Assembly (NCBI GenBank): GCA_900763875.1
Contig: CAAFLX010000037.1
Location: forward strand, 20,607 to 84,606
DNA: 64,000 bases
Source: Clostridia bacterium
GTDB taxonomy: Bacteria; Bacillota; Clostridia; Christensenellales; CAG-917
Reading direction: 5' to 3'
Below, piece after piece: positions 3,283 through 40,895 of this stretch. The notes beneath the pieces were generated by a model. That model was not told the DNA's origin and ran no database searches. It saw only the letters and a list, made by a program, of their open reading frames with translations. Every line of letters starts with the position of its first letter. Positions within the stretch are counted from its first letter, which is position 1. Made by a program: the position numbers and the translations under genes.

Positions 3283-3356
3283 TGGCAGGAGCTATAGGAA
3301 TCGAACCTACACAGTGGGAGTCAGAGGCCCAAGTGCTACCACTACACCAAGCTCCA
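3283..3356 (-). tRNA. tRNA-Gln (anticodon CUG)
   Basis: The reverse complement folds as a cloverleaf. D stem GTGT/GCAC, anticodon loop CTCTGAC, T arm GTAGG-TTCGATT-CCTAT, 3' GCCA encoded, U1-U72 mismatch at the acceptor end. Confidence 0.85.
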
Positions 3357-3540: not shown

Positions 3541-3617
3541 CGGGGTGTAGCGCAGTTTGGTAGCGCGTACGGTTCGGGACCGTAAGGCCGCGAGTTCAAG
3601 TCTCGCCACTCCGACCA
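3541..3617 (+). tRNA. tRNA-Pro (anticodon CGG)
   Basis: CGGGGTG acceptor, GCGC/GCGC D stem, anticodon stem TACGG/CCGTA with loop TTCGGGA, T arm GCGAG-TTCAAGT-CTCGC, CCA encoded. Confidence 0.95.
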
Positions 3618-8328: not shown

Positions 8329-8543
8329 ATATGTACCCATATGTCCAAAAATATCGAACAAATGTTGCGAATGTCGAGATTCTGGGAGAAAATTGGAAAA
8401 AAATGGGAAAATTTGTAAAAAAATATTGTGAAATCGGTTGATTATATGGTGGGGCTATGCTAATTTTTTTATAATACAAATGCAAGAAAAACACCGCTTT
8501 TTGTGCGGTTTTTGCAGGGTTGCCTATGGCAAAAGAGGGAATT

Positions 8544-11500
8544 ATGGGAAAACTTAAAAACAGAGATTTTGCCGTTTGGATACGGCTCTTTTTTTGTGTG
8601 GCATTGATTGCCCTTTGTATTCTTACGCTTTGCTGCTGTGACAAAGAAGACGTTGACAGTTTGTTTCAGCCGAGCAATTTTTGCGTGACTTTCGTTTTGA
8701 ACAACGGTGAAGAAAACGTCGTTTGGCACAAGGGCGACGCCGTGCCGACTCCCCATAAGAAAGATTGCGAATTTGTGTGTTGGTGCTCCGACGAGGCTTT
8801 GATGGCGAAAACCGACCTCGATTTTGCCAAGTTGAATCTTGTAAACAGCATCACGCTCTATGCAAAGTGGCGCGAATTTGACGATATGTCGAGCGTGGTT
8901 TTTGAGGACGCCGAGTTTGTATATGACAAAATGCCGCACGCTTTGAAAGTCAAAAATATCCCGGACGGCGCAAGCGTGACATATGACAAGAAAAACGAGC
9001 AGATTGCCGCAGGTAAGTATGAAATCACCGCAACGGTAAAAGCCGACGGCTTTAAGGATTTTGTCAAGATGGCGACGCTCACAATCAAGAAAGCAAAAGT
9101 TGAAAACTTGACGTTCGAGGACGAGCAATTCATTTGGGACAACGACAAGAAATTCGGGTTGTACGTTGGCGGCGATATCCCCGACGAGGACAAAGTCAGC
9201 TATGAGGGCAACGGACAAAGCGAGGTGGGCGAGCATAGCGTAATCGCCAAATTCGAGGTGAGCGACAACTTCGAGCCGATTGCGGATATGACGGCAACGC
9301 TCGTGATAAAAGAGAAATATTTTGAAGTGACTTTTGACGACGGAATATCGCCTGCAACCGTTGTCAGCGTTGGGCACGGCAAGGCGGTTGAGGATATGCC
9401 CACTCCCACGCAAAAGGTGGGATATGCGGCAAAATGGGATAGGGACAGCGTTGAAAACGTGCTTGAAAATATCACCGTAAATGCCGAATATATCCCGATA
9501 GAATACACAATATCCTTTATGTCGGACGGCGAGGAAGTGAAAAAGACGACCTACAATATCGAAAGTGCGGTTGAGTTTGAAAACGCAACGCGCGAGCACT
9601 ATACTTTTGAAGGTTGGTTTGAAAAGCAAGCTCCCGTTGAGCGTGTGCTCGGACTTGATATAGGCAATTACGGCGACAAAGTGTTTTATGCAAGGTGGAT
9701 TGCAAACGACTATTTTGTCACCTATCACTTGGACGGCGGACTCAACAGCGAGGTAAACGTAAACTTTGAGGACAAATACAAGTTTACAATCGAGAGCGAC
9801 GCGCTCAAACTTGCCGACGCCGAAAAAGAGTTTTATATTTTCGAGGGCTGGTTTACGAGCGAAAACTTCGAGGGCGAAAGGGTGGTTGCGCTCAACAAGG
9901 GCGCGTGCAGCAACCTCGATTTGTACGCCAAGTGGTCGGCGCAAAAATTTGAAATACACTATGAGTTGGCAGGCGGAAATAACAATGAAAACAATCCGCT
10001 TTTCACCACTATTGAGAGTGATGAAATCGTATTGCTTGCCCCAAGCAAGGCGCACTACGATTTTGTGTGCTGGACGGATAGGGCAAACGGCAAAGTTGAC
10101 AAAATTGCTGCGCACAACGTCAAGCAAATCTATCTGATTGCAGTGTGGAGCGCAACAAAATATGAGATAACCTATCATCTTTTTGGCGGCGAAAACAGCG
10201 AGAATAAGCCGTATTTCACAATCGAGGATGAGGATATTTTGCTTTTAGAGCCGTCAAAGCGCGGATATAAGTTTGTCGGTTGGTTTGAAAATGCCGATTT
10301 TTCGGGCGAAAAGATAGAGAAAATCGAGTGTTCGCAGGCAAGAAATATCGAGCTGTTTGCAAAGTGGGAGATTGAAACGTATCAAATCGTTTTGGACGCA
10401 AACGGCGGTGAAAACGTGCAAAATCCGTCATTCTACACGGTTGAATCTGAAAATATCGTGCTGAACAATCCGACAAGAAAAGGATATAAATTCGAGGGCT
10501 GGTTTGACAAAGCCGGGCGCAAAATCGAAAATATAGACAAGGGGAGCGTCGGCGGCGTTTCGCTGGCGGCAAAATGGAGCGTCATAGAATATACGATAGT
10601 GTTCGATTCAAACGGCGGTTTGACATTTGAGCCGATTAGATATACGGTTGAGAGTGAAACTGTGGAATTAAAACCGTCAGTAAAAGCCCACTACGTTTTC
10701 GGCGGTTGGTTTGATGAGGGCGGCAACAAGGTTGAAAGAGTGGAAAAAGGCTCTGTCGGCAACTTGAATCTCAAAGCGAATTGGGTTGCGAAAGAGTATG
10801 AAATCACCTTTGATTCAAAGGGCGGAAACGAGGTGAAATCAATGTTCTACACCATTGAAACGCCAAGTTTCGACTTGCCGAGCTGCTCTCGTAATAACTA
10901 TAATTTTGTGGGTTGGTTCGGCTCGGACGGCGGCGAGGTGAAAAGAATCGAGCGCGGCAGTTTCGGAGATATGCTCCTCGTTGCAAAATGGAGCGCAAAA
11001 AGCTATACGGTCACGTTTGAATCAAACGGCGGAAGCAAAGTTGAGAATATGACTTATTGTGGGGATTCCTCCTGTTTTGTATTGCCGACTCCCACAAGAG
11101 ATTACTACAAATTTGACGGCTGGTTTGAAAGCGCGGATTTGAGCGGCGGCGCAATCTCCTCGTTCTCAACAAACAAAGACACAACTTTGTATGCAAAATG
11201 GACTCCGCTCGAATACATTGTGACTTTTGATTCAAATGGCGGCAACGAGGTGAAAGCGTGTATCTATACGGTCGAATCGGATGATATCGTGCTTGTCGAG
11301 CCGCAGAAAGACGGATTTGTTTTCGATGGGTGGTATGCAGGCGATACAAAGGTTGAAAAGATTGCCAAAGGATCGCACGGCGATTTGGTTTTGACGGCGC
11401 GTTGGAGCGAAGTTGTCGCACCATCGGATTTTACCGTTGAAAACGGTGTTCTAACCGCATACAACGGCACTGATACAACAATAATCATTCACGCAATCGA

Positions 11501-12251
11501 GGGCGGTGAAAGTGTGCGCTCCGTTGCAAAATCAACTTTCGACAGCGTGCGTGCAAGCGTAACGGAAATTGTCATAGACGAGGGCGTTGAGAGCGTCGAA
11601 AGGGGCACTTTTGACGGTATGAGCGCACTTGAAACGCTCGTTTTGCCCTCCACAATCAAGACGATGTATAGAGGTATGCTCAAAGATTGCGCGTCTCTTG
11701 CCAATTTGACCGTTCCGTTTGCATCGTTTGCCGTGACTGACGAGAATGCTACCGAGGGCACGAAGTATGTTGCAAACAACGGAGAAAACGTATTTAGTTT
11801 CGGGTTCTTGTTTGTTGCCCAAAAGGGTGATTCTCTTATTATTGATAGCAATAAATCAGATGTTTTTAATTTATATTTTGAGCATGCGGCTACTCAAAAA
11901 ATCAAAACTATAACAACATTAAAAGCGTATATACCGCAATCTTTGACTAGCGTAAAAATCCTTGGAGGCGATATTTGCAAGAAAGCGTTTCTTGAAATGG
12001 GAATACGTGATATCGTTTTAGGCAAAGACATTTGCGTTGTGGAAGATATGGCTTTTGCAAAAATGCCGAATTTGACAAGCGTTGAAATTGAAAATGCACA
12101 AGTCAAGTTTTGCACGTCGGTTTTCTCCGCCAGCGACAACGCGGTCGTATATCTTGCAAACGCCGAACAAAAGGAGTTGTTTGTCAAAAACAATCAAAAC
12201 TATTCGGATAGAGTGCAAATCAAACAGGTTGCCTCAAACGGGCAGGTGTGA
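8544..12251 (+). CDS. cell-surface protein: lipobox-like signal, MBG-like Ig modules, about 11 Listeria-Bacteroides-type repeats, C-terminal BspA-type LRRs
   Basis: ATG 8544 follows GAGGGA; alternative starts are 8520 and 8526. The signal ends LTLCCC. An approximately 70-aa unit (Y.I.F..NGG...Y......L..P.R.GY.F.GWF........AKW) recurs about 11 times. The tail has LRR_5-like IP..V..I...AF repeats. Confidence 0.8.
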   Translation: MGKLKNRDFAVWIRLFFCVALIALCILTLCCCDKEDVDSLFQPSNFCVTFVLNNGEENVVWHKGDAVPTPHKKDCEFVCWCSDEALMAKTDLDFAKLNLVNSITLYAKWREFDDMSSVVFEDAEFVYDKMPHALKVKNIPDGASVTYDKKNEQIAAGKYEITATVKADGFKDFVKMATLTIKKAKVENLTFEDEQFIWDNDKKFGLYVGGDIPDEDKVSYEGNGQSEVGEHSVIAKFEVSDNFEPIADMTATLVIKEKYFEVTFDDGISPATVVSVGHGKAVEDMPTPTQKVGYAAKWDRDSVENVLENITVNAEYIPIEYTISFMSDGEEVKKTTYNIESAVEFENATREHYTFEGWFEKQAPVERVLGLDIGNYGDKVFYARWIANDYFVTYHLDGGLNSEVNVNFEDKYKFTIESDALKLADAEKEFYIFEGWFTSENFEGERVVALNKGACSNLDLYAKWSAQKFEIHYELAGGNNNENNPLFTTIESDEIVLLAPSKAHYDFVCWTDRANGKVDKIAAHNVKQIYLIAVWSATKYEITYHLFGGENSENKPYFTIEDEDILLLEPSKRGYKFVGWFENADFSGEKIEKIECSQARNIELFAKWEIETYQIVLDANGGENVQNPSFYTVESENIVLNNPTRKGYKFEGWFDKAGRKIENIDKGSVGGVSLAAKWSVIEYTIVFDSNGGLTFEPIRYTVESETVELKPSVKAHYVFGGWFDEGGNKVERVEKGSVGNLNLKANWVAKEYEITFDSKGGNEVKSMFYTIETPSFDLPSCSRNNYNFVGWFGSDGGEVKRIERGSFGDMLLVAKWSAKSYTVTFESNGGSKVENMTYCGDSSCFVLPTPTRDYYKFDGWFESADLSGGAISSFSTNKDTTLYAKWTPLEYIVTFDSNGGNEVKACIYTVESDDIVLVEPQKDGFVFDGWYAGDTKVEKIAKGSHGDLVLTARWSEVVAPSDFTVENGVLTAYNGTDTTIIIHAIEGGESVRSVAKSTFDSVRASVTEIVIDEGVESVERGTFDGMSALETLVLPSTIKTMYRGMLKDCASLANLTVPFASFAVTDENATEGTKYVANNGENVFSFGFLFVAQKGDSLIIDSNKSDVFNLYFEHAATQKIKTITTLKAYIPQSLTSVKILGGDICKKAFLEMGIRDIVLGKDICVVEDMAFAKMPNLTSVEIENAQVKFCTSVFSASDNAVVYLANAEQKELFVKNNQNYSDRVQIKQVASNGQV

Positions 12252-16267: not shown

Positions 16268-16296
16268 TTGACTACAAGTGTTCGATAAGGTATAAT
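16268..16296 (+). promoter_or_regulatory. consensus promoter placed for a leaderless operon transcript
   Basis: TTGACT 16268-16273, 17-nt spacer, TATAAT 16291-16296. ATG 16304 is 8 nt past the -10. No SD. Confidence 0.6.
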
Positions 16297-16303
16297 CTTA
16301 ACT

Positions 16304-17842
16304 ATGGTTGACGTACACAAAAGCATATACGATTTCATGCGCTCCTACCGCGAAAAGCACGACGATGACATTGCCGTCGTTCACGGTGCACGCAAAATGA
16401 ATTACGCAACCTTATTCAAACAAGTGGACAGAGTTGCAGGCGGATTGGTGCGCCTCGGCGTGACAAAAGGCGACGTCGTTATGATTGCTCTTCCCAACAT
16501 TCTTCAAGCCGTCGTGGCGGTGTATGCCTGCTCTCGTATCGGCGCGATTGCGTCGATGATTCATCCCAAACTTTCCGCAAACGAATTTTCGGTCGCTTTC
16601 AAAAAACTTCAACCCAAAGTGGTGTTTTTGAGCGATATAAACCAATGCGAATATTATCCCAAGGCCAAGGGGGCAAGACGCATCATCTGCCACTTCGGGC
16701 TTTACGATTTTTTGGGACTGCCCCTCAAAGCCGATTTCGAGCCTTTCCACGGCGACGGTGAAGAGATTGCGTTTTATATGCAGTCGGGAGGCACGACGGG
16801 CGAGCCGAAGACGGTGGCGATTTCCTCTCGCGCGGCAAACGCAATGGTTGCCAATCTTTTGCAGTATCTAGGCGACAAATTTTCACAAAAGAACGCGTTG
16901 CTTGCGTCGCTTCCGATGTTTCACGGCTTTGGGCTGTGCGTTGGCGTGCACCTTTCGCTCTCAACCAATATGCGCTCGGTGCTATTGCCCGTATTCAAGG
17001 CGAAAAAGACCGTCAAGGTCATTGCAAAAAACCACGTTACGACCATGATTGCCGTGCCGAGAATGGTGCAAAAGCTGCTTGCTCTCGATGAGTTTTCGGG
17101 GGATAACATCTCTTGCATAGAGGACATTTACGTCGGCGGCGACCTCGTTGGCGAGGATTTGGTGAAAAAGTTTCACGCGCGTATGGAAGAGTGCGGCGGC
17201 AAGGGCATACTTTCCCCCGGCTACGGACTTACCGAAACGGCGAGCGTATGCACGGTGTCCAATGCGGATTTTGTGTCCGGCTCGGTGGGCAAGCCGTTGC
17301 TCAACGTCGAGGTTAGGGTTGTGGACGAGGATTTGAAAGAGGTCAAGCGCGGCACTGTCGGTGAATTGCTTGTTTCTGGCGAGCAGATTATGAGCGGATA
17401 CGTCGGCGACGAGGAAGGCACGAAAAAGGCTCTTATCCGCCTCGACGGCAAAACGTGGGTGCGCACTGGCGACTATTTCAAACAAGACGAGGAGGGCAGA
17501 CTCCTCTTTATGGGCAGAAAAAAGAGGCTCATCAAGATTTCGGGCATCAACGTGTTTCCAAGCGAGATCGAGAGGGTGGCAAGCGAGTTGCCGTTTGTGG
17601 GAGATTGCGCGTGCATAGAATACCGCATCGATGGCAAACCCTACATCAAATTGCTTGTCGAGGGCAGCCTCACCGACGCTCAAAAGCAGGCGGTTGTCAA
17701 CCATATTTCCAAAAATATGTCGCACTGGAACAAGCCTAGGGAAGTGCAATGCGTGGACAAATTTCCGCGTACAAATATAGGAAAAATAAATATAGAGGGA
17801 TTAAATTATGAATTTGGCAAAGATACGCAGGGCGGTCAATAA
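16304..17842 (+). CDS. AMP-forming acyl-CoA ligase (adenylate-forming superfamily)
   Basis: YMQSGGTTGEPK, GYGLTET and TGDYF...GRKKRLIKISGINVFPSEIE core motifs. Confidence 0.8.
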   Translation: MVDVHKSIYDFMRSYREKHDDDIAVVHGARKMNYATLFKQVDRVAGGLVRLGVTKGDVVMIALPNILQAVVAVYACSRIGAIASMIHPKLSANEFSVAFKKLQPKVVFLSDINQCEYYPKAKGARRIICHFGLYDFLGLPLKADFEPFHGDGEEIAFYMQSGGTTGEPKTVAISSRAANAMVANLLQYLGDKFSQKNALLASLPMFHGFGLCVGVHLSLSTNMRSVLLPVFKAKKTVKVIAKNHVTTMIAVPRMVQKLLALDEFSGDNISCIEDIYVGGDLVGEDLVKKFHARMEECGGKGILSPGYGLTETASVCTVSNADFVSGSVGKPLLNVEVRVVDEDLKEVKRGTVGELLVSGEQIMSGYVGDEEGTKKALIRLDGKTWVRTGDYFKQDEEGRLLFMGRKKRLIKISGINVFPSEIERVASELPFVGDCACIEYRIDGKPYIKLLVEGSLTDAQKQAVVNHISKNMSHWNKPREVQCVDKFPRTNIGKINIEGLNYEFGKDTQGGQ

Positions 17843-19544
17843 AATTGCCCCGTCCGTCAAAGTCGAAAACTACCGTGGTTGCGTAAGGCTCACGGGCGAG
17901 CTTGACAACTGGGCGGATATCTACAAATGCGGCACTGCTGCCGTGAGCAAAGGCTCTCTTGGTGTGCTCAACGACATCAAGTTGAAAGGTTTCCACGAAG
18001 AACCCAAAAAGCCCACGCTCAAAGACAGCGCGCTTGCGGGGCAAAAACCCGACGTGCTTATCGTCGGCGGCGGCATCGTCGGATGCGCGGTGGCAAGAGA
18101 GCTTTCTCGTTTGAAGCTCGACGTTTTGCTCGTCGAAAAGGCAAACGACGTGGCGGCTGCGGCGTCTTCACGCAACGACGGTTGTATCCACCCCGGCATA
18201 GACTTGCACAAGGGGCAACAAAAACTCAAGTACGTGCTCGAGGGCAACAGAATGTACACAAACCTTGCAAAAGAGCTTGGTTTGTCCTTCAAGCGTTGGG
18301 CGCAAATGTTCATATTCTCCACCGCTTGGGAGAACGCAATCGTTTCGCCGCTCTTCCTTTTGAAGGCGAAAATCCTCGGCGTCGAGGGCGTAAGGCACGT
18401 CACCAAAGAGGAAATCAAGAGAATCGAACCCAATCCGCCTGCATGGGCAAAGGGCGGTATGTATATGGCAAGCGCAGGTATGGTTTCGCCCTACAAGACG
18501 ACGATTGCGCTTTGCGACAACGCAATTCAAAACGGCGCAAGAGTGTCGCTCAACACCTACGTCGAGGGTATGGACGTCAAGGACGGCAAGGTTGTTTGCG
18601 TGCATACAAACCGCGGCGATATCTATCCTCGCGCGGTTGTCAACTGCGCGGGCGTTTACAGCGACGTCATTGCGGATATGGCAGGTGACAGAACTTTCAC
18701 CATTCACCCAAGAAAAGGCACGGACATCATTCTCGACAAAAAGAAAGTCGGCTATGCGCTCTCGTCCTATGCAAGAAGTTATTTCGCACCCCTGCCCAAG
18801 GAGGCTCGCCCCGACAAAAACGAGGAGGTCGGACACACCAAGGGCGGCGGCGTTATGCGCACGATAGACGGCAATATTTTGGTCGGGCCGGACGCACACG
18901 AAGTGCCCTCGAGAGAGGACTATTCCACAAGCATCAGGGACATCGACAACATCATCAAAAAGCAAAAACTCGCCCAACCTATGCTCAACAAGGGCGATAT
19001 CATAACCTATTTTTCGGGTACGCGCGCTGCAACCTATGAAGAAGATTTCGTGGTCAGACGCGGCATTTTCACCAAGAACGTTTACGAGGCGGCAGGCATT
19101 CAATCGCCGGGCATCACCGCCGCTCCCGCCATTGCGGTTGACATAAAAAACTGGATTAAAGAGGATTTGCACGCAGAGGATAACCCCACGTTCAACCCCG
19201 TTTATAAGCATACTCCGAGGCTTGCAAACCTCAAAGACGAGGAAAGAGCGAAATACATCGCCAAAAACCCCGAATACGGCGAAATTATCTGCCGCTGTGA
19301 GGAAGTGAGCAAGGGCGAGATTATCGACGCGCTCGAAAGTCCGCTCAAAGTCGCAACCATCGACGGCATCAAGCGCAGAGTGCGCCCCGGTATGGGAAGA
19401 TGTCAAGGCGGTTTCTGCTCTCCGCTCGTTGCGAAAATCATTGCCGAGCACGAGGGTATAGCAATCGAGGACGTTCTCAAAGGCGACGAGGGCAGCGTCA
19501 TCGTCTACGGAAACACCAAGGGCAATGCCAAGGAGGAAAACTGA
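17808..19544 (+). CDS. GlpA-like FAD-dependent dehydrogenase with BFD-like [2Fe-2S] domain and about 75-aa BON-like N-terminal extension
   Basis: Dinucleotide fold VLIVGGGIVGCAVAREL. C-terminal CRCEEVSKGEI...GMGRCQGGFC. The ATG overlaps the upstream gene by 35 nt, with GAGGGA upstream. Confidence 0.75.
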   Translation: MNLAKIRRAVNKIAPSVKVENYRGCVRLTGELDNWADIYKCGTAAVSKGSLGVLNDIKLKGFHEEPKKPTLKDSALAGQKPDVLIVGGGIVGCAVARELSRLKLDVLLVEKANDVAAAASSRNDGCIHPGIDLHKGQQKLKYVLEGNRMYTNLAKELGLSFKRWAQMFIFSTAWENAIVSPLFLLKAKILGVEGVRHVTKEEIKRIEPNPPAWAKGGMYMASAGMVSPYKTTIALCDNAIQNGARVSLNTYVEGMDVKDGKVVCVHTNRGDIYPRAVVNCAGVYSDVIADMAGDRTFTIHPRKGTDIILDKKKVGYALSSYARSYFAPLPKEARPDKNEEVGHTKGGGVMRTIDGNILVGPDAHEVPSREDYSTSIRDIDNIIKKQKLAQPMLNKGDIITYFSGTRAATYEEDFVVRRGIFTKNVYEAAGIQSPGITAAPAIAVDIKNWIKEDLHAEDNPTFNPVYKHTPRLANLKDEERAKYIAKNPEYGEIICRCEEVSKGEIIDALESPLKVATIDGIKRRVRPGMGRCQGGFCSPLVAKIIAEHEGIAIEDVLKGDEGSVIVYGNTKGNAKEEN

Positions 19545-19545
19545 T

Positions 19546-20793
19546 ATGCGCAATTATGACGTAGTGGTTATAGGCGGCGGCCCTGCAGGTTTGTCTGCGG
19601 CGCAAAGCGCGTGCCAAAAGGGCGGCAAAGTCGCAATCATCGAAAGAGAGGCTCGCCTCGGCGGAATCTTGAAACAATGCGTCCACGACGGTTTCGGACT
19701 CATTCGTTTCGGCGAAAAGCTCGCAGGCCCCGAATATAGCGAAAGATACATCGATTTCGTCAAGGAACTTGACATCGACACGTTCACTTTCACTTTCGTG
19801 ACGAGAGTTGAAAAGAAGGACGGCGGTTTTGAAATCACCGCAGTGTCCAAGGACGGCATAGAAAAATTCTTCACCAAAGCAATCGTGCTTGCAACGGGTT
19901 GCAGAGAGCGCACCGCAAAGCAAGTGCTCATTCAAGGCACTCGCCCCGCAGGCGTGTTTACGGCAGGTACGGCGCAAAACTTTGTCAACTTGCAAGGCAA
20001 GCTCCCCACCAAAAAGTGCGTGATTTTGGGCAGCGGCGACATCGGACTCATTATGGCAAGACGTCTTACGCTCGAAGGCGCAGAGGTCGAGGGCGTGTAC
20101 GAAGTCAAACCCACCCCCAGCGGACTTACGAGAAACATTCATCAATGCTTGCACGATTTCAACATTCCGCTCCACCTCTCCCACACCGTGACGAGAGTGT
20201 TCGGCGCAGACAGATTGGAAGCGGTCGAAGTTGCAAAGGTCGATGACAAAATGCAACCCATTCACGGCACTGAAAGACGTATCGAGTGCGACGCGCTCAT
20301 TCTTTCGGTCGGACTTATCCCCGAAAACGAACTTGCCGAATCTCTCGGCGTAAAAATCAATCCTTTCACCAAGGGAGCGGACTGCGACCAAACGTATATG
20401 TCGTCCATTGACGGCGTGTTCTCGGCAGGCAACGCGCTCAACGTGTTCGACCTTGTGGACTATGTTTCCGAATGTGCAAAGGACGCAGGCGCAAACTCGG
20501 TCGGTTTCAAGCCGTCGGGCAAGAGCGTGCGCATAGAAAAGGGCAAGGGACTTTTGAGTTTTGTGCCTCATAGAATCGATTTGAGCAAGCCTTGCGACAA
20601 AGTTGTGTTCTTCTTCCGCGCCGCAAAGGATATGGACAAGGCAACCTTGTACGTCAGCGTGGACGGCAACGAGGCGTTCAAAAAGAACTTCGCTTTCTTG
20701 CGCCCGCCCGAAATGCAACGTATCGAACTTGATTTTGCCTCTTTCGGCATCAAAGAGGGAAGCAAAGTGGAAGTCAGAGTGGAGGAAAGATAA
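19546..20793 (+). CDS. GlpB-like pyridine nucleotide-disulfide (FAD/NAD) oxidoreductase
   Basis: VVVIGGGPAGLSAA and a second GSGDIGL fold. AAGGAGGA precedes ATG 19546, one nt after the upstream stop. Confidence 0.7.
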   Translation: MRNYDVVVIGGGPAGLSAAQSACQKGGKVAIIEREARLGGILKQCVHDGFGLIRFGEKLAGPEYSERYIDFVKELDIDTFTFTFVTRVEKKDGGFEITAVSKDGIEKFFTKAIVLATGCRERTAKQVLIQGTRPAGVFTAGTAQNFVNLQGKLPTKKCVILGSGDIGLIMARRLTLEGAEVEGVYEVKPTPSGLTRNIHQCLHDFNIPLHLSHTVTRVFGADRLEAVEVAKVDDKMQPIHGTERRIECDALILSVGLIPENELAESLGVKINPFTKGADCDQTYMSSIDGVFSAGNALNVFDLVDYVSECAKDAGANSVGFKPSGKSVRIEKGKGLLSFVPHRIDLSKPCDKVVFFFRAAKDMDKATLYVSVDGNEAFKKNFAFLRPPEMQRIELDFASFGIKEGSKVEVRVEER

Positions 20794-21128
20794 TGGAACT
20801 TGTATGTATCGTATGCCCGCGCGGGTGTAGAATCAAAATAGAAGACGGCGTTGTGAGCGGCAATAGCTGCAAAAGAGGCGAGGCGTTTGCTTTGAGCGAA
20901 ACCACTTGCCCCATGCGTTCTATCTGCTCGACAGTCGCAACCACGTTTGCCGATTATCCCGTGCTCCCAGTGAGGACGGAGGGCGAAATCCCCAAAGACA
21001 AAATCGGCGAGCTTATGAAACAAATCAACCAAGTCGTCGTCAGCGAAAAATTGCATAGAGGCGACGTTGTCATCAAGGGCGTTTGCGGCACTGACGTGAA
21101 CCTCATCGCAACCGCCAGCATTTGTTAA
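20793..21128 (+). CDS. DUF1667-domain protein (third subunit of the GlpA/GlpB-like module)
   Basis: CIVCPRGCRI...GNSCKRGEAF...E...P.R pattern. The ATG shares one nt with the upstream TAA. Confidence 0.7.
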   Translation: MELVCIVCPRGCRIKIEDGVVSGNSCKRGEAFALSETTCPMRSICSTVATTFADYPVLPVRTEGEIPKDKIGELMKQINQVVVSEKLHRGDVVIKGVCGTDVNLIATASIC

Positions 21129-21144
21129 TCTAGGACAAACAAAG

Positions 21145-21172
21145 CGCAAAGCGGACGGGAAACCGCTTTGCG
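21145..21172 (+). other. intra-operon hairpin without T-run
   Basis: CGCAAAGCGG 21145-21154 / CCGCTTTGCG 21163-21172. No U-tract, so more likely a processing or stability element than a terminator. Confidence 0.4.
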
Positions 21173-21190
21173 ACAAATAAAAGGAAAATT

Positions 21191-22765
21191 ATGAGAGAAC
21201 CACTTGTACTTACCATTGATTTCGGCACGCAGAGCGTGCGCGCAATGCTTTTCGACAAGCACGGCAAGGACTACGGCAAAGTCAAAGTCCACTTCAAACA
21301 GCCATATTTTTCAAAGGAAATAGGCTGGGCGGAACAAACCCCCGAATTTTATTGGGACAAGCTCAAAGAGGCAACAAACGGGCTTAAAGAGCAATGCTCC
21401 GACATTTGGGACGACATAGAGGGCGTGTCGGTCACCACCATTCGCGATACGGCAGTCATCGTGGACAAGGACGGCAAACCCTTGCGCGACATCATACTTT
21501 GGCTCGACCAAAGAGAGGTCAAGGACGCCGACAAAACGAGATTCGGCAAAGGATTCAAAGCCCTTTTGCGTATGCTCAACCTCTACGACCTCGCGGCGGC
21601 GCAATGCAAAGTTTCCGCCTGCAACTGGGTGCACGAATACGAGCCTGAAATTTGGGCAAAAATGCACAAATTTTTGATGTTCTCGGCGTGGATAACTTTC
21701 CGTCTTACGGGCGTTATGAAAGACTCCGTTGCCAACCAAATCGGACACATTCCGTTTGACTACAAAAACAAAACCTGGCAATCGCCAAAGGCAATCACCG
21801 CTCCGATATTCGACCTCAAAGCCAAAAATATGTGCGACCTCGTCGAGCCGGGCACGATTGTCGGCTATATCACAAAAGAGGCGAGTGCCGACCTCGGCAT
21901 AAAAGAGGGCATACCCGTGATTGCGTCCGGCTCGGACAAGGGCTGTGAAACGCTCGGCTCGGGCTGCGTCGATTCAACGGGCGCATCGCTGTCGCTTGGC
22001 ACGACCGCAACCGTGCAAATGACCACGGACAAGTATATCGAAACAGAGCCTTTCGTGCCGACCTATCCTGCCGTTTTGTCGGGCAAGTACAATCCCGAAA
22101 TCGAGATTTTCCGCGGATATTGGATGATATCTTGGTTCAAAAACGAGTTTGCGCACAAGGAAGTGAGAGAGGCGGAGATGCTGGGCGTTTCGGCAGAGGA
22201 GCTTTTGAACAGACACCTCAAAGACGTCCCGGCAGGCTGTGAAGGCTTGATTTTGCAACCATACTGGACGCCGGGCATCAAGCACCCGACTGCAAGAGGC
22301 GCAATCCTCGGATTTGCGGATTGCCACACCAGAGCGCACATATACAGAGCCATCATCGAGGGCATCGCATACGGTCTTTACGACGGACTTTTGTCCATAC
22401 AGCGCAAGACCAAAATCGACGTCAAATTTATCGCCGTTTCGGGCGGCGGAAGTATGAGCGACGAGATTTGCCAAATCACCGCCAACGTTATGGGCATACC
22501 CGTAAGGCGCGCGCAAACCTATGAAACGTCCTCTTTGGGCGCGGCAATCACCGCGTTCACGGGGCTTGGAATTTACAAGTCTTTTGAAGACGCGGCAAAG
22601 AATATGGTGCACGTATCGTCCGAGTTCAAACCCGATATGAAAGAGCACGAGCTTTACGAGAAACTCTATCGCAGAATCTATCGTAGAATTTATCCCAACA
22701 ACAAGCGTCTTTATGACGATTTGCGACACATTTTGCGCGAATCGAAAGCGGACGGCAAAAAATAA
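21191..22765 (+). CDS. FGGY-family carbohydrate/polyol kinase
   Basis: LTIDFGTQSVRAMLFD N-terminal phosphate-1 motif and C-terminal GGGS..D region. Not a canonical GlpK N-terminus. Confidence 0.75.
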   Translation: MREPLVLTIDFGTQSVRAMLFDKHGKDYGKVKVHFKQPYFSKEIGWAEQTPEFYWDKLKEATNGLKEQCSDIWDDIEGVSVTTIRDTAVIVDKDGKPLRDIILWLDQREVKDADKTRFGKGFKALLRMLNLYDLAAAQCKVSACNWVHEYEPEIWAKMHKFLMFSAWITFRLTGVMKDSVANQIGHIPFDYKNKTWQSPKAITAPIFDLKAKNMCDLVEPGTIVGYITKEASADLGIKEGIPVIASGSDKGCETLGSGCVDSTGASLSLGTTATVQMTTDKYIETEPFVPTYPAVLSGKYNPEIEIFRGYWMISWFKNEFAHKEVREAEMLGVSAEELLNRHLKDVPAGCEGLILQPYWTPGIKHPTARGAILGFADCHTRAHIYRAIIEGIAYGLYDGLLSIQRKTKIDVKFIAVSGGGSMSDEICQITANVMGIPVRRAQTYETSSLGAAITAFTGLGIYKSFEDAAKNMVHVSSEFKPDMKEHELYEKLYRRIYRRIYPNNKRLYDDLRHILRESKADGKK

Positions 22766-22843
22766 CAAAAAATATAAAAATGAATAAATCGCAACTTTAT
22801 CTTGTATGTTTTGACGGATAAAGTCGCAATTTGGAGGAAAACT

Positions 22844-24556
22844 ATGTCAAAACCCTACAAAGACTTTGAGCCAAAATGGATTACAAACGCACCCAATCCC
22901 AGATCCTTCCGCGCCATTATGAAATGGGGCGATCCCAACTTCTACAAAGCACCCAAAGAGGGACTTTTCAAGCTCATCAAAAGCCAATTCTCTCTGACCG
23001 ACGACGACTTCAAAACTATGGTCGATACGGGGGAAGAGCTTGTTGACGTGCATGTCGAGAGTGCGCTCACCAAGGAGCAAATCGACGCAATCAACGTCAT
23101 CGTCGGGCCTCAAAACGCAACCACCGACGACTTTGAAAGAGTGCGCCTTGCCTATGGCAAAACCATGATTGACATTATGCGTTTGAGAAAGGGCATCGTC
23201 GAAAACGTGCCCGACATCGTGGTTTATCCCACCGACAAAACTCAAATCGAAAACCTCGTCAAATATGCAGACGCAAACGGCATCAAGGTGTACGTGCACG
23301 CAGGCGGCTCGTCCGTTACGCGCGGTACAGAACCTATGGTCAGCCCCAATATGATGATTGACATCAGCAAAAACTTCAACAAGGTTATTGCGTTCAACGA
23401 AGTCAACCAAACAATCACCGTTCAACCGGGCATCAGCGGCCCGCAACTTGAAGATATCCTAAACCACGCTCCCGAAAACTTCGGCACTACAAAGAGATAC
23501 ACCTGCGGACACTTCCCGCAATCGTTTGAGTACTCCTGCGTTGGCGGCTGGGTTGTCACAAGAGGATCGGGACAAAACTCTACCTACTACGGCTGCGCGG
23601 CGGACATCGTCCTCAAACAAGAGTACGTCACCCCCATCGGCGTCATCAAATCGGACGGTGCGCCGAGAAAGGCAACGGGCCCGGACATCGACCAAATTAT
23701 GATGGGCAGCGAGGGCACGTTCGGCATCCTCACCGAGGTCACGCTCAAAGTGTTCAACCTCTCCAAAAAGCACAAGAAATTCTCCTTTATGTTCCCCACT
23801 TGGGAGGACGGCATGGCGGTTATGAGAGAAGTTATGCAAGGCGAATTCGGTCATCCGTCGGCATTCCGTCTTTCGGACGCAGAGGAAACGGATATGATGT
23901 CCCATATGTACGGAATCATCGGCTCTCCGCTTGAACCGTTGCTTGCGGCAAAGGGCTACAAACAACATTCGAGATGCTTGCTCCTCGGCTTCTGCGACGG
24001 CGAGAGCGGACTTCAAAAGAACATCTACCGCAACGTCCGCAAGATTGCAAGAAAGCATCACGGACTCTACCTCACGGGCTACGTCACCACGGCTTGGGAG
24101 CACGGCAGATTCAACGACCCGTACCTTCGCGACACCATTCAAGACTACGGCATCATCATCGACACCCTCGAGTGCGCCGTCAACTGGGACAATATGGCTC
24201 AAGTTCACGACGACGTGAGAAAGGTTGTCAAGGCGTGGCCGAACGCAATTTGCACTTGCCACATCTCGCACAGCTATCCGCAAGGCGCAAACCTCTACTT
24301 CATCTTCATCATCAAGACCACCGACCTCGACGCATTCAAGAAGTATCACAGCTCCATTTTGGAGGCAATTATGAAGTCGGGCGCGGCACTTTCGCACCAT
24401 CACGGCATCGGCAAACTCTTTGCGCCGTTCCTCGAAGGCTCGATCGGAAGCGAACAACTCAAAGTGTACAAGGCGCTCAAAGCATACTTTGACCCCAACT
24501 ACACGCTCAATCCGGGCGGAACGCTTGCTCTTGACGAGCATCCTGCCAACTTCTAA
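22844..24556 (+). CDS. FAD-linked oxidase of the alkyl-dihydroxyacetonephosphate synthase (AGPS) type
   Basis: GGAGG before ATG 22844. N-terminal MKWGDP region, PCMH-type FAD domain. C-terminal SHHHGIGK...YFDPNYTLNPG carries HHH where GlcD-type enzymes have GEHG. Confidence 0.65.
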   Translation: MSKPYKDFEPKWITNAPNPRSFRAIMKWGDPNFYKAPKEGLFKLIKSQFSLTDDDFKTMVDTGEELVDVHVESALTKEQIDAINVIVGPQNATTDDFERVRLAYGKTMIDIMRLRKGIVENVPDIVVYPTDKTQIENLVKYADANGIKVYVHAGGSSVTRGTEPMVSPNMMIDISKNFNKVIAFNEVNQTITVQPGISGPQLEDILNHAPENFGTTKRYTCGHFPQSFEYSCVGGWVVTRGSGQNSTYYGCAADIVLKQEYVTPIGVIKSDGAPRKATGPDIDQIMMGSEGTFGILTEVTLKVFNLSKKHKKFSFMFPTWEDGMAVMREVMQGEFGHPSAFRLSDAEETDMMSHMYGIIGSPLEPLLAAKGYKQHSRCLLLGFCDGESGLQKNIYRNVRKIARKHHGLYLTGYVTTAWEHGRFNDPYLRDTIQDYGIIIDTLECAVNWDNMAQVHDDVRKVVKAWPNAICTCHISHSYPQGANLYFIFIIKTTDLDAFKKYHSSILEAIMKSGAALSHHHGIGKLFAPFLEGSIGSEQLKVYKALKAYFDPNYTLNPGGTLALDEHPANF

Positions 24557-24565
24557 ATCTCGTTG

Positions 24566-24602
24566 CAAGGCTACGGCACGTCGTCGTAGCCTTGTCTTTT
24601 TG
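24566..24602 (+). terminator. operon terminator
   Basis: CAAGGCTACG 24566-24575 / CGTAGCCTTG 24585-24594, then TCTTTTT. Confidence 0.8.
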
Positions 24603-30880: not shown

Positions 30881-33800
30881 TTATTCCTTGTTCTCGTCGT
30901 ACTTGTTGTGTTTTGCGTCGAGGGAAGGAGTTTCGACAAGAGATGCAGCCTTCTTGTCTTTCTTCTTTGCAACGGGTTTTCTGACCTTGCGCACAACGTA
31001 GACAATCAACACGACGATGATGAGCACTGCAAGCACAATGGTCGGAATCATCCACCACAAAGCCTCGGTGTTGAAGGTCTTGTCGGGTTTCTTGTTTTCG
31101 CCGTTGTTGTCGTCGCCCTTGCCTTGCGTTTCGTCGGTGACTTGACGTTTGAGAACGGTGCTGCTTTCGGTGGCGTTGTCGTACTCGGTTTGCGTGACGG
31201 TCTTGACGGTTACGTCGTCGAACATAGCGTAGCCCGACGTGATGCCCGTGACCTTGGTTTCGCCGTTGACGGTTTCAGCCTCATACTTGCCGAGGGAGAG
31301 CTTGACGGTGACGTTGGTCACGTCGTTGTCCATAGTCTTGACGTAGAAGGTGTATTTTGTCCAGTCGTTGTTGCCCTTGATTGCGGTGAAAGTGAAGGGC
31401 TTGTCCGACTCGTTTGCAGAGCCGAGGAACAACTCGACGTTGACGCCGCTGATGTCGTCGTCGCCCTTTACGCCGTAGGTCTTTGCCCAGAGGCTGATTT
31501 CATAGTAGGACGCCTCTTTGAGGGTGATTGAGGAGCTTGTGTAGGTGTACGCACTCTTTTCGGTGTTGTTGATCACAAGCATTTGCTTTCCGCTGTGAGC
31601 TTGAAGCTGACTGACGGGAATCCAGTTGTTCTTTTTCAGCTCGACAACCTTTGCTTGTTTGAGGGCGGCGATGATTTCGTCGTCGGTTTTGCCCTCGTTC
31701 TTCTCGTCCTTTCTTGCGGCGGCAATTTCCTCATCGGTGGGTTTTGCAAGGTCGCTGTCAACGGTGTAGTCCGCGCCGAGAATGCGAGCGTAGTCTATTC
31801 CGTTCACGTTTTCGATTTCATAGAAGTTGCTGTCCGCATAGACGATGCCGCTCTTGGTTGATTTTGCGGAAGCTGTGCCACTCAAGCTGCCCGTCCAGCC
31901 GTTGGGAGTTGCCAAAGACTTTCTCGATTCCACGGTGGAGGAGAGGGAGTCAAAGCTGTCGGTGAGGAAGGAGAGGGTGCGATTGGTGTCGTTATCCTTT
32001 GCCTCGTTGTTGAATCTTTCCTCGTCAATCTTGGTGTAGTGTACGTTGTCGAAGAACACTGCGCCGCTTGATTTTGCCGCGTCTTCGGACAAATCTTGCG
32101 CACTGTACTTGGAGTCTTCACCCAGCCAGAGGTTGAGTTTGAGAGAAACGCTCGATTGACCGGTGCGGATATAGAAGGTGTACTTTGTCCAATCCGCGTC
32201 CTCCTTGGTGTCGGTGAAGTGACCGTTGCCAGAGTCAACCGATGACTCGCCCGTGAGGTAGATTGAGAACTTGGTGTTGCCAACCGTTCTTGCATACACG
32301 GAGAGTGCGTAGAAGCTGTTTGCAGAGAGCGTCACGCTGTTGGAGGAGAATCCTGCCGCGTGAGATTTGGTGTTGTCGTTTGAGCCGATTGCAAGGATTT
32401 GAGGTTTGTTGCCCGGACGGTTGTTGAGATCGGTGCCTTCTGCATAGAGATCCTTGTAGAAGTTGTCAAACTTGCTTGCGTCGATGTTGGGGAAGGTCTT
32501 GTTGGTTTGATGTGTGTGTTTGAACTTGTTGCCGTCCTTTTCCAAGGAGATGACGCCTGCAACGAGGCTGGACTCGTTTGTGTTGGGCTTCAAAGTCTTG
32601 TCGCTGAACGTCCAGTTGGAGGGAGTTGCGGCAATGTCTTGGTCTTTGAGAGAGGTGTTCTCTTTGAGGTTCTCGTCCTTGGCGTCGTAGTCGTCGAAAG
32701 CACCGTTGGTGAAGGGGTAGGAGATTGACGAAGAAGCGAGGTTGGCGGTCTTGACGTAGTTGCCCGTGCTTGCGCCGTCATAGATGGTTTGGTTGATAAG
32801 CGCACCGTTGACGTTGGCAACGTACATAGAACCGCTTGCAAGAGTGCTTGACGCCCAGCGGTCGCCGCTGCCCAGAGCAAACTTCAAGGTGACGTCGATA
32901 TCTTCTTTGTCACTGCCCTTGACGAACATCGTGAGTTCGCACCAATCGTTGAGATAGGGGTCGAAACCGTTTTCGTCGGAGTTGGTGTTGATTTGAGAGA
33001 ACGTGGTCAAAACGCTGTCCTTGTCTGCCGATTCGCCTTTCTTGACGAGGGAAACGTATGCGCCGCTCGTAGACTTGACGTCTTCGGTCTTAACCCACAC
33101 CGAGAAACGATAGTATTGATCTTTCTTTATGGTGATTTTTTGTGTTTCGATTTCGTAACGGCTGTCACCGCTTGCTTTGATTTGGTATGCGCGAGCGTCT
33201 TCCAAAGCGTAGGGCATAGCGGGAGTTCCTTCTTGTCCGAGAGTGATTACGCCGTGGGAGATAAGTCCCTTGACAATCGGGTTTTTGGAATCGGTGAGGT
33301 CATAGTTTGACACCCAGCCGTTCGGAATGCCTGCGCCGAGTTGTTCGATACCCTCGGGGTAGTTTGAAGACGCGCCGACGGAAAGAATGTCTTTGAGAGT
33401 GTTTTCGGTTGAGAGGTCAACCACAAAGCCCTTGCGGTTTGCCTTGCCTGCCGCCGTCAAGTCGAGAGTTTGATTGTCGTTTTTGCCCTCGATGACGTCG
33501 TCTGCGTTCGGGAGAGCGTCAATCTCTTTGAGATTGAGTTCGTCCATAAACAGCCAGCCGTTTGCAAAAGTGCCGTTTGCCTTGTAGGTGATTTGCTTTT
33601 TGTCGGAGCTCATATTGAGATATTCCACCGCAGTGTTGCTTGCAGTGCCTTCCGTGCCGAGCCAAACGGTCATATTGTAGTTGTAATCTTTGAATTGGTT
33701 GCCCTTGATATAGAAGGTGTAGGTTGTCCAGCCGCTCGTTGTTTGACCGTTAACCGTGCCGTTGTCATAGCTTTCGCTGTCAATCTTGGTGCTGCCGATG

Positions 33801-37693: not shown

Positions 37694-37694
37694 T

Positions 37695-39543: not shown

Positions 39544-39544
39544 T

Positions 39545-40881: not shown

Positions 40882-40895
40882 GGAGGTGATGCCCT

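Follow-up and report, generated by a model that had tools for sequence, protein, structure and literature searches.

In the current view, the ether lipids of strict anaerobes are made by PlsA/PlsR and Ger, which reduce esters on intact lipids, while alkyldihydroxyacetonephosphate synthase (AGPS) belongs to the aerobic route of eukaryotes and myxobacteria. PlsA/PlsR, the plasmalogen synthase, and Ger, the glycerol ester reductase, are the known oxygen-independent ether-lipid routes in anaerobic bacteria (10.1101/2022.04.21.487849), and the operon of Myxococcus xanthus is an example of the canonical bacterial sets with AGPS (10.1101/2025.10.10.681575). Here, we analysed a stretch of 64,000 nt from a Clostridia bacterium (contig CAAFLX010000037.1; hereafter the window, to whose positions all coordinates refer), in which one operon encodes an AGPS-like flavoenzyme together with a glycerol-3-phosphate (G3P) dehydrogenase-like complex, an FGGY-family kinase and an acyl-CoA ligase. 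Our results add to the current view a deep AGPS-like clade of anaerobic Bacillota, present in 587 or more species and invariably in an operon with its own dehydrogenase complex, and we tentatively suggest that this module acts on glycerolipids.

The flavoenzyme resembles AGPS in sequence, fold and catalytic motifs

The last gene of the operon encodes the protein on which the comparison with AGPS turns:

22844 to 24556, plus strand: AGPS-like FAD enzyme of 570 amino acids, with an N-terminal helical domain, the domains FAD_binding_4 and FAD-oxidase_C, and residues R342, Y485 and H518-H520

A preliminary description of this DNA had likened the protein to AGPS, and its grouping with AGPS and not with the glycolate oxidase subunit GlcD, D-lactate dehydrogenase (D-LDH) or vanillyl-alcohol oxidase is borne out by sequence, fold, catalytic motifs and the N-terminal domain. 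In a phmmer search of the PDB, the best match was Dictyostelium AGPS (2uuu; E=4.9e-64, query residues 31-557), and guinea-pig AGPS matched at E=4e-58, with an identity to AGPS of about 28-32%. The next family, glycolate oxidase, followed at 2e-21 and over the N-terminal half only; the solved relatives other than AGPS (glycolate oxidase and D-LDH) gave N-terminal matches alone, the best stretches of which end at residues 301-344. An AlphaFold model of the protein (pTM 0.80) has helices at residues 22-115; regions with a pLDDT under 50 are confined to three segments within the FAD-binding domain and to two other, very short stretches. With this model as query, the top 37 Foldseek hits were all AGPS chains, with TM-scores of up to 0.76 and alignments covering about 547 of the 570 residues, and D-LDHs came next.

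Residues R342, Y485 and H518-H520 align to Arg419, Tyr578 and His615-617 of guinea-pig AGPS, the reference numbering being anchored by two mutant entries of the PDB, 4bca (Y578F) and 4bc7 (R419H); His616 and His617 have been named as active-site residues of AGPS (PMC13019191). The structural comparison proposed in the preliminary description thus came out in favour of AGPS as far as the conserved HHH loop, the catalytic Tyr and the Foldseek ranking are concerned. The motifs SHHHGIGK and MKWGDP quoted there are also present, and the D-LDH outgroups carry TGEHGIG, of the GEHG type, at the HHH position. The alignment with Dictyostelium AGPS, which begins at query residue 31, reveals an AGPS-type N-terminal domain; this domain and the cap insertion both align to AGPS, and both are missing from YgcU of Escherichia coli. 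An insertion of 8 residues (the NHAPENFG region) is found in the flavoenzyme and not in AGPS.

The HHH loop and the N-terminal domain had been called hallmarks of AGPS. Both are present, but the loop is less telling than was supposed, as E. coli YgcU also keeps the HHH, Tyr and Arg residues. Because YgcU-type proteins keep all three, these residues are no proof of alkyl-dihydroxyacetone phosphate (DHAP) synthase activity, and we regard them as necessary but not sufficient for an AGPS assignment.

A deep clade outside validated AGPS

A neighbour-joining tree of 19 sequences, rooted with D-LDH outgroups from plasmid records and including Dictyostelium and guinea-pig (Cavia) AGPS sequences copied from HMMER output, places the window protein in a superclade that is monophyletic at 90%. 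This superclade has three deep lineages, namely YgcU, a Clostridial clade (100%) and a further 100% clade that holds the Cavia and Dictyostelium AGPS together with actinobacterial homologs from lipid-type gene contexts. Because the Clostridial clade is not nested among the validated AGPS enzymes, we call the flavoenzyme AGPS-like rather than AGPS proper, with a deep clade of its own on the present tree. The phylogenetic placement called for in the preliminary description therefore has two sides: the protein stands apart from D-LDH, and it also stands outside the clade of validated AGPS enzymes. No GlcD/LctD paralog was found in the window or in the loci collected from other genomes.

YgcU was considered as the sister of the Clostridial clade, since an unrooted tree joined the two at 94%, and this placement was dropped after the D-LDH outgroups had been added. 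The 94% split is uninformative because it is equivalent to the other clade being monophyletic, and the position of the root is poorly resolved (50%).

The module is conserved across anaerobic Bacillota

A relative was detected in at least 587 GTDB species when 185,579 species genomes were scanned with a pattern. We collected 80 loci, all of which contain the AGPS-like gene by construction and 54 of which are complete, that is, have enough flanking sequence. The AGPS-like proteins of the complete loci are 56-95% identical to the window protein, and the closest among the matches listed is that of Firmicutes bacterium CAG:475 (95% amino-acid identity). In every complete locus (54/54), the AGPS-like gene is immediately preceded on its own strand by a trio of genes, which encode a DAO/BFD protein, a NOX-type protein and a DUF1667 protein. 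The FGGY kinase gene is adjacent in 40 of the 54 (counting L035, where the gap is slightly larger), while the gene for the AMP-forming ligase is adjacent in only 10, all of the window's lineage. The six-gene unit described earlier is therefore specific to one lineage, and the conserved unit consists of four to five genes, not six. The survey of gene neighbourhoods suggested at that time thus upholds the linkage of the trio and, for the most part, of the kinase, and does not uphold that of the ligase or reveal an acyltransferase or reductase.

A TetR regulator, found in 18 loci, is the only other recurrent neighbour. Genes for aldehyde:ferredoxin oxidoreductase (AOR) occur in 5 loci, in 3 of which a polyferredoxin gene lies alongside. 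Two loci without the FGGY kinase, L039 and L074, have a lipid kinase of the diacylglycerol kinase (DAGK) type, with the domains DAGK_cat and YegS_C, directly downstream of the AGPS-like gene. We regard the kinase step as integral to the module but interchangeable. Among 260 immediate neighbours, 13 have at least six predicted transmembrane helices, and the recurrent ones are a MATE pump, which is unrelated, and an O-antigen-ligase-like protein. No consistent transporter linkage was found in the 80 Clostridial loci.

The host had been described as an anaerobe, which agrees with its closest relatives, metagenome-assembled genomes (MAGs) of gut Clostridia, and with the Rnf operon of the window (36389-41777, plus strand), which encodes RnfC, RnfD, an Rnf-Nqr membrane subunit and an RnfB-type Fe-S protein. 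The confirmed presence of this operon supports an anaerobic lifestyle. The AGPS-like clade is very abundant in gut metagenomes, and cultured carriers include Emergencia timonensis, Extibacter muris, Brassicibacter mesophilus and Caloranaerobacter ferrireducens.

Five MAGs with other labels, Corallococcus (L021), Hallerella (L027), Lentisphaeria (L031), Escherichia coli (L050) and Treponema (L072), carry the Clostridial-type module with 57-60% identity and the same gene order. These odd labels likely reflect mis-binning, or else horizontal transfer.

A dedicated dehydrogenase complex with a BON-like domain

The trio upstream of the AGPS-like gene has the following components in the window:

17808 to 19544, plus strand: G3P dehydrogenase (G3PDH)-like FAD-dependent catalytic subunit of 578 amino acids, with BON-like, DAO and BFD [2Fe-2S] domains
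17808 to 18050, plus strand: BON-like N-terminal domain of the catalytic subunit, about 80 amino acids, present in 65 of the 65 AGPS-linked homologs examined
19546 to 20793, plus strand: NOX-type pyridine-nucleotide-disulfide oxidoreductase of 415 amino acids (Pfam Pyr_redox_2, 112 bits)
20793 to 21128, plus strand: DUF1667 small subunit of 111 amino acids, the "MOX" of the Thermococcus-type complex (Pfam DUF1667, 96 bits)

The order of DAO plus BFD, Pyr_redox_2 and DUF1667 is that of the Thermococcus-type complex and recurs in a stand-alone trio of Ruminococcus albus. A role for DUF1667 in the G3PDH complex is described in a bioRxiv paper that cites Koga 2019 (10.1101/2024.02.29.582781). The best NCBIfam match of the catalytic subunit is type 2 G3P oxidase (198 bits versus a cut-off of 460), among PDB entries Mycoplasma GlpO matches best (E=8e-32), and the subunit scores 121 bits on the GlpA model, which has a cut-off of 553 bits. 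The best NCBIfam matches of the second subunit are the SoxA and thioredoxin-reductase types. Shine-Dalgarno sequences precede the starts at 17808 (GAGGGA) and 19546 (AAGGAGG).

A complex of the E. coli GlpABC type was rejected, as the GlpA score lies below the cut-off, the second subunit is a Pyr_redox_2 protein and the third is DUF1667 and not the membrane anchor GlpC; the label "GlpB-like" once given to the second subunit accordingly has to be replaced, since this is a NOX-type protein and not a GlpB homolog.

The catalytic subunit is about 36% identical to that of the stand-alone R. albus trio, which has neither the BON-like extension nor an AGPS-like gene. None of 24 plasmid homologs of the catalytic subunit covers query residues 1-65. 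The BON-like segment of the window protein scores 16.7 bits against a Pfam cut-off of 27 bits, and we call the extension BON-like only tentatively. Binding to phospholipid or membranes is generally attributed to BON domains. Taken together, the trio is, as far as these comparisons go, a dedicated paralog and a distinct subfamily of the Thermococcus-type G3PDH/NOX/DUF1667 complex. An ordinary G3P dehydrogenase that supplies DHAP, as had been assumed earlier, was rejected because of the paralog-specific N-terminus, the identity of about 36% and the presence of a kinase other than GlpK.

These data also bear on an explanation by glycerol catabolism and detoxification, in which the kinase and the trio would yield DHAP and the flavoenzyme would be a dehydrogenase of D-lactate or other 2-hydroxy acids that clears products of the methylglyoxal bypass. 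D-LDH and GlcD do share a superfamily with the flavoenzyme, and Thermococcus-type trios are G3P dehydrogenases where they have been studied. However, the flavoenzyme has HHHG in place of the GEHG of D-LDH, structures other than AGPS match its N-terminal part only, and the kinase is not GlpK. In addition, adjacency to glpK is usual for the trio in Clostridia, and such GlpK-linked trios occur separately, without an AGPS-like gene; the stand-alone trio also does not have the BON-like domain. We therefore consider this explanation highly improbable.

The kinase is not a glycerol kinase, and the ligase is an accessory gene

The two remaining enzymes of the operon are encoded on either side of the trio:

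21191 to 22765, plus strand: FGGY-family kinase of 524 amino acids, YgcE-related subfamily (Pfam FGGY_N and FGGY_C)
16304 to 17842, plus strand: AMP-forming acyl/aryl-CoA ligase of 512 amino acids (Pfam AMP-binding and AMP-binding_C)

The kinase had been taken to act on a glycerol-type substrate. On TIGR01311, the model for GlpK, it reaches 166 of the 590 bits required, and on that for XylB 262 of 380; glycerol kinases of solved structure match it at about 125 bits. Its nearest identifiable relatives are YgcE-type kinases (206-220 bits), with which it has the motif S/N-D-K-x-x-E-x-L/I-G in common. It is thus not a glycerol kinase, and its residues differ at the positions that we take to correspond to Tyr135 and Phe270 of GlpK. 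Since the nearest YgcE types accompany YgcU, the pairing of kinase and flavoenzyme may be old and ancestral.

The function of the ligase is less clear than the term "fatty-acid activation" in the preliminary description implies. This activity is not established, as all NCBIfam hits lie far below their cut-offs and the best solved relative is a 4-coumarate-CoA ligase (142 bits). The ligase is a lineage-specific accessory gene.

The first interpretation of the operon was a de novo ether-lipid route, in which glycerol would be converted to DHAP, the ligase would activate a fatty acid, unlinked enzymes would make acyl-DHAP and a fatty alcohol, and alkyl-DHAP would be formed as in peroxisomes and myxobacteria. 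Such a route would account for the AGPS-like sequence, fold and motifs and for the translational coupling of the ligase to the dehydrogenase in the window's lineage; the AOR of five loci could supply fatty aldehyde or alcohol anaerobically, and in Streptomyces an AGPS homolog does sit with an acyltransferase and a short-chain dehydrogenase/reductase (SDR) in a true biosynthetic set. On the other hand, the kinase is far from GlpK (166 versus 590 bits) and would be superfluous for de novo synthesis, the dehydrogenase is a specialised paralog in cells that already obtain DHAP from glycolysis, and 44 of the 54 complete loci have no ligase. The pathway had been read as incomplete in the window, and it is equally so elsewhere: none of the 80 loci has a linked gene for a DHAP acyltransferase, a fatty-acyl reductase or an SDR, whereas canonical bacterial sets have them. 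We regard the de novo route as quite improbable.

Related flavoenzymes share a dehydrogenase and a kinase

Wider relatives were sought by tblastn against annotated plasmids and E. coli genomes, and fall into four types of context: Streptomyces, Tsukamurella, E. coli ygc and Clostridial. In the Streptomyces context, an SDR and a PlsC-type acyltransferase accompany the AGPS-like gene, which looks like a canonical ether-lipid set judging from its gene content. A plasmid record of Tsukamurella tyrosinosolvens (L085:4611-9249) combines GlpD, a TetR regulator, an AGPS-like gene and a DAGK/YegS kinase. The E. coli ygc cluster (L083:8021-18738, NZ_CP025916.1) has the order ygcE-yqcE-ygcW-ygcU-ygcS-ygcR-ygcQ-ygcP-ygcO-ygcN and encodes the FGGY kinase YgcE, two major facilitator superfamily (MFS) transporters, the SDR YgcW, YgcU, the electron-transfer flavoprotein (ETF) YgcRQ, a GlpP-type antiterminator and the FixCX-like YgcNO. 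Equivalents of this cluster are found in Priestia and Enterococcus. The ygcU gene was found in 5,098 of 5,426 complete genomes, and our literature search returned no paper on its function.

All contexts of the superclade combine an alcohol-to-ketone dehydrogenase (the G3PDH trio, GlpD, a glycerol dehydrogenase or an SDR) with a kinase and the flavoenzyme. The presence of a dehydrogenase and a kinase in every context fits with a flavoenzyme that needs a DHAP-like keto-phosphate, as AGPS does.

Two further plasmids carry AGPS-like genes in other surroundings. In Sphingopyxis macrogoltabida (L087:2009-12615), presumably a degrader of polyethylene glycol, the gene lies beside genes for AraC, an AMP-binding ligase, an MFS transporter, a glutathione S-transferase and a TonB receptor. 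In Rhodococcus (L091:5602-9243), it lies between genes for an SDR and a protein of the sterol-desaturase family, a family that includes alkylglycerol monooxygenase. Both contexts hint at a possible link to ether metabolism.

The ygc-type clusters are the basis of a different explanation, the catabolism of a soluble substrate. Here, the substrate of the kinase would be a small keto-sugar or polyol, the phosphorylated intermediates would be oxidised by two true dehydrogenases, the G3PDH-like complex and the flavoenzyme, and the likeness to AGPS would reflect ancestry only. Erythritol catabolism in Brucella, which uses the FGGY kinase EryA and the GlpD-like EryB, offers an analogue. YgcU-type proteins share the catalytic motifs and are flanked in E. 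coli, Priestia and Enterococcus by genes for FGGY kinases, SDRs, MFS transporters, ETFs, FixCX-like proteins and GlpP antiterminators; the window's kinase is closest to the YgcE type, and a GntR/UTRA regulator lies beside the module in Caloranaerobacter. The Clostridial loci differ from such clusters in that neither a consistent transporter nor ETF genes are linked to them, and a DAGK-type lipid kinase substitutes for the FGGY kinase in two of them. Moreover, their accessory genes encode TetR, AOR and an acyl ligase and not sugar isomerases or aldolases, and the window protein has two regions in common with AGPS, the N-terminal domain and the cap insertion, which are missing from YgcU. On balance, we consider soluble-substrate catabolism unlikely, although it deserves more weight than the glycerol and de novo explanations above.

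A proposed role in the metabolism of 1-O-substituted glycerolipids

We tentatively propose, at a little less than an even chance, that this module of anaerobic Bacillota carries out an AGPS-type exchange at C1 of a 1-O-substituted glycerolipid, after the action of a kinase and a dehydrogenase. We infer its substrates, the order of its steps and their direction, while gene content, linkage, the conservation of domains and motifs and the clade structure are as observed above. A kinase, usually a YgcE-like FGGY enzyme and occasionally one of the DAGK/YegS lipid kinase type, would phosphorylate a 1-O-substituted glycerol (a monoalkyl- or monoacylglycerol). The G3PDH/NOX/DUF1667 complex, possibly bound to the membrane through its BON-like domain, would then oxidise the sn-2 hydroxyl to give a 1-O-substituted dihydroxyacetone phosphate. 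With the HHH loop, Tyr485 and Arg342, the AGPS-like flavoenzyme would swap the substituent at C1, ester for ether, through an adduct of flavin and substrate. The product could be reduced to the G3P form again by the dehydrogenase complex, and the whole process would then be redox-neutral. In this way, the module could work without oxygen, either building 1-O-alkyl lipids or dismantling and salvaging existing ones. The ligase found in the window's lineage would probably re-activate the fatty acid that is released or required.

A glycerolipid is favoured over a soluble substrate because no transporter is linked, a lipid kinase can replace the FGGY kinase, TetR, AOR and acyl-ligase genes are found nearby, the dehydrogenase has a BON-like domain and the flavoenzyme has the AGPS N-terminal domain. 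The accessory genes (TetR, AOR and acyl ligase) point to lipids. The proposal also draws on the invariant linkage of the trio to the AGPS-like gene, on the AGPS-like architecture and catalytic residues of the flavoenzyme, and on a cluster of the Mycobacteriales, compared below, as an independent parallel. It may also be reasoned that a dedicated dehydrogenase makes more sense on a substituted G3P, as glycolytic DHAP would be abundant in a sugar-fermenting anaerobe.

Several observations weigh against a glycerolipid role. The Clostridial clade sits outside the 100% clade of validated AGPS, and its sister relation to that clade has a bootstrap of only 50%. The absence of a DHAP acyltransferase, a fatty-acyl reductase and an SDR from the 80 loci has been mentioned, and an alcohol dehydrogenase is not consistently linked in them either. 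The GntR/UTRA regulator that accompanies the module in the cultured Caloranaerobacter is of a type that usually senses small metabolites. The BON assignment is sub-threshold: the Pfam model BON (PF04972) was detected in 9 of 16 diverse members, with a best E of 5.4e-4 but all hits below the cut-off, and a profile of the domain gave E. coli OsmY as its top hit (E=0.0036; hhalign P=0.0011, 21% probability). To our knowledge, no FGGY kinase accepts a lipid substrate. Classical labelling experiments in Clostridium by Goldfine and others reportedly spoke against the formation of plasmalogens from DHAP and fatty alcohol in anaerobes. Finally, the YgcU branch keeps HHH, Tyr and Arg and sits in soluble-substrate clusters with MFS, SDR, ETF and GlpP-antiterminator genes, so the chemistry shared by the superclade may be a true dehydrogenation of a small phospho-polyol.

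For the glycerolipid role, we lean towards salvage or turnover of pre-formed lipids rather than synthesis, because de novo synthesis needs no kinase and because of the classical labelling data from clostridia. A more specific version, which we consider unlikely, is that the module is an oxygen-independent "etherase". In gut and sediment anaerobes, pre-formed 1-O-alkylglycerols derived from ether lipids of diet, host, archaea or bacteria would be phosphorylated and oxidised to alkyl-DHAP by a membrane-associated complex with the BON domain, and the AGPS-type enzyme, running in reverse or with water, would release a fatty alcohol and DHAP or acyl-DHAP. If true, this would be the first anaerobic route of glyceryl-ether cleavage, a counterpart of the animal alkylglycerol monooxygenase, which depends on O2 and tetrahydrobiopterin.

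Operon layout, expression signals and other features of the window

The following signals were recognised around and within the operon:

16268 to 16296, plus strand: sigma-70-type promoter TTGACT-17-TATAAT, 11 of 12 consensus positions, hexamers read directly
24565 to 24602, plus strand: intrinsic terminator (24565-24595 by a narrower delimitation) with a 13-bp stem including 7 G-C pairs, followed by a T-tract
21145 to 21172, plus strand: hairpin between the DUF1667 and FGGY genes, predicted fold -17.8 kcal/mol

Six open reading frames, all on the plus strand, occupy positions 16304-17842, 17808-19544, 19546-20793, 20793-21128, 21191-22765 and 22844-24556. Their junctions are an overlap of 35 nt (17808-17842), a gap of 1 nt (19544/19546), a shared nucleotide (20793) and gaps of 62 and 78 nt. 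A Shine-Dalgarno sequence precedes each of the five internal genes, and for this reason the start codons at 19546 and 22844 were favoured over longer reading frames. The earlier account of six co-directional genes between a promoter and a strong terminator therefore holds in its reading frames, junctions and signals. In gene order, the Pfam domains are AMP-binding; DAO and Fer2_BFD; Pyr_redox_2; DUF1667; FGGY_N/C; and FAD_binding_4 and FAD-oxidase_C. They agree with the list of products given at that time, except for its "GlpB-like" and "fatty-acid activation" labels, which fell as described above.

The promoter is the best match in a scan of 11 kb. Within positions 16268-16306, the end of the -10 box is separated from the ATG of the ligase by 7 nt, and no Shine-Dalgarno sequence lies between them. 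The same layout, a -35 box, 17-18 nt, a -10 box, 6-8 nt and the ATG, is shared by eight related loci (L001, L003-L008 and L010), in which the promoter spacers and coding sequences have diverged. As the two hexamers and their spacing from the start codon are conserved despite this divergence, the promoter is probably real and the transcript probably leaderless, in an organism of the Clostridia type.

The stem of the intergenic hairpin and its ACGGGAAA loop also occur in L001, L002, L004 and L005. The hairpin has no T-tract on the plus strand, and the terminator scan flagged only a terminator-like site on the minus strand. It may therefore act in mRNA processing or stability, at the boundary between the trio and the genes for the kinase and the flavoenzyme. 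Near the operon, an Rfam scan detected neither a riboswitch nor any other kind of RNA element; its only matches in the window are two tRNA genes elsewhere, at 3286-3356 (minus strand) and 3541-3614 (plus strand).

Two large reading frames lie further away. One (30881-35176, minus strand) encodes 1,431 amino acids and had no Pfam match at E<=1e-5; the other (8520-12251, plus strand) encodes a protein of 1,243 amino acids with seven Listeria-Bacteroides repeats and BspA-type leucine-rich repeats, likely a surface protein.

Implications

A literature search found no paper on the Clostridial clade, the module, the linkage of its genes, the BON-like dehydrogenase paralog or the displacement of the kinase. 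JGI labels some members automatically as "alkyldihydroxyacetonephosphate synthase". One paper mentions distant agps homologs in some bacteria and does not follow them up, and another describes AGPS as being without phylogenetic signal. What appears to be new here is the setting, with the presumed AGPS-type chemistry placed in strict anaerobes and in a pathway of different architecture.

Should the module serve to make 1-O-alkyl lipids, it would represent a second, unrecognised ether-lipid pathway in anaerobes. If it cleaves or salvages such lipids, it would explain the turnover of glyceryl ethers without oxygen and the processing of dietary, host or archaeal ether lipids by gut bacteria; ether lipids act as signalling molecules in animals. 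The module also provides a lead for two orphan systems, the ygcU/ygcE cluster of E. coli and the glpD1-Rv2251-Rv2252 cluster of mycobacteria. The existence of cultured carriers makes the question directly testable.

Comparison with known systems

The window flavoenzyme shares with AGPS (EC 2.5.1.26; Dictyostelium 2UUU, guinea-pig 4BBY and M. xanthus MXAN_1676) the N-terminal helical domain, the FAD_binding_4 domain and the cap domain. In contrast to AGPS, it is partnered with a G3PDH-like complex and a kinase instead of an acyltransferase, a fatty-acyl reductase or an SDR, and the hosts of the Clostridial type are strict anaerobes. PlsA/PlsR and Ger are different again, as they are reductases of the benzoyl-CoA-reductase/HgdC type that act on intact diacyl lipids, and nothing in the module resembles them.

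We know of no anaerobic counterpart of animal ether cleavage. This reaction, catalysed by alkylglycerol monooxygenase, needs O2 and tetrahydrobiopterin (PMC8147360). Animal salvage offers a precedent for the kinase step, since the 1-O-alkylglycerol kinase ACAD10 feeds pre-formed alkylglycerols into ether-lipid metabolism (PMC13596139), although this enzyme belongs to another kinase family.

The soluble Thermococcus-type complex (the T. kodakarensis TK1393 group, with homologs in T. maritima and C. perfringens) agrees with the trio of the window in its three genes, their order and their domains. The window version differs in its BON-like domain and in being linked to an AGPS-like gene instead of glpK, glpF and glpP.

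YgcU and YgcE of E. coli and their equivalents in Priestia and Enterococcus likewise pair a flavoenzyme carrying HHH, Tyr and Arg with a related FGGY kinase, and have glycerol-related partners such as the GlpP antiterminator and glycerol dehydrogenase. YgcU is smaller (about 485-505 amino acids), without the N-terminal domain or the cap insertion, whereas the window protein, with 570 amino acids, has both and falls in a separate clade. The YgcU clusters contain MFS, SDR and ETF/FixCX genes and no G3PDH trio, while the window type has none of the MFS, SDR or ETF genes linked.

The Mycobacteriales have a cluster of glpD1, a TetR gene, an Rv2251-type flavoprotein and the Rv2252 diacylglycerol kinase, in which Rv2251 is presumably AGPS-like, as we assume from its Tsukamurella ortholog. 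The gene order and co-regulation of Rv2249c-Rv2252 have been described (PMC4564863), and the Tsukamurella cluster matches this order. Its dehydrogenase is a single-subunit GlpD (DAO and DAO_C), its flavoenzyme belongs to the other major clade, and neither the dehydrogenase nor the usual kinase is homologous to that of the Clostridial type. Nevertheless, a G3P-type dehydrogenase, a TetR regulator, an AGPS-like flavoenzyme and a kinase are brought together in both, and the DAGK/YegS family to which the mycobacterial kinase belongs is the one also used in two loci of the Clostridial type.

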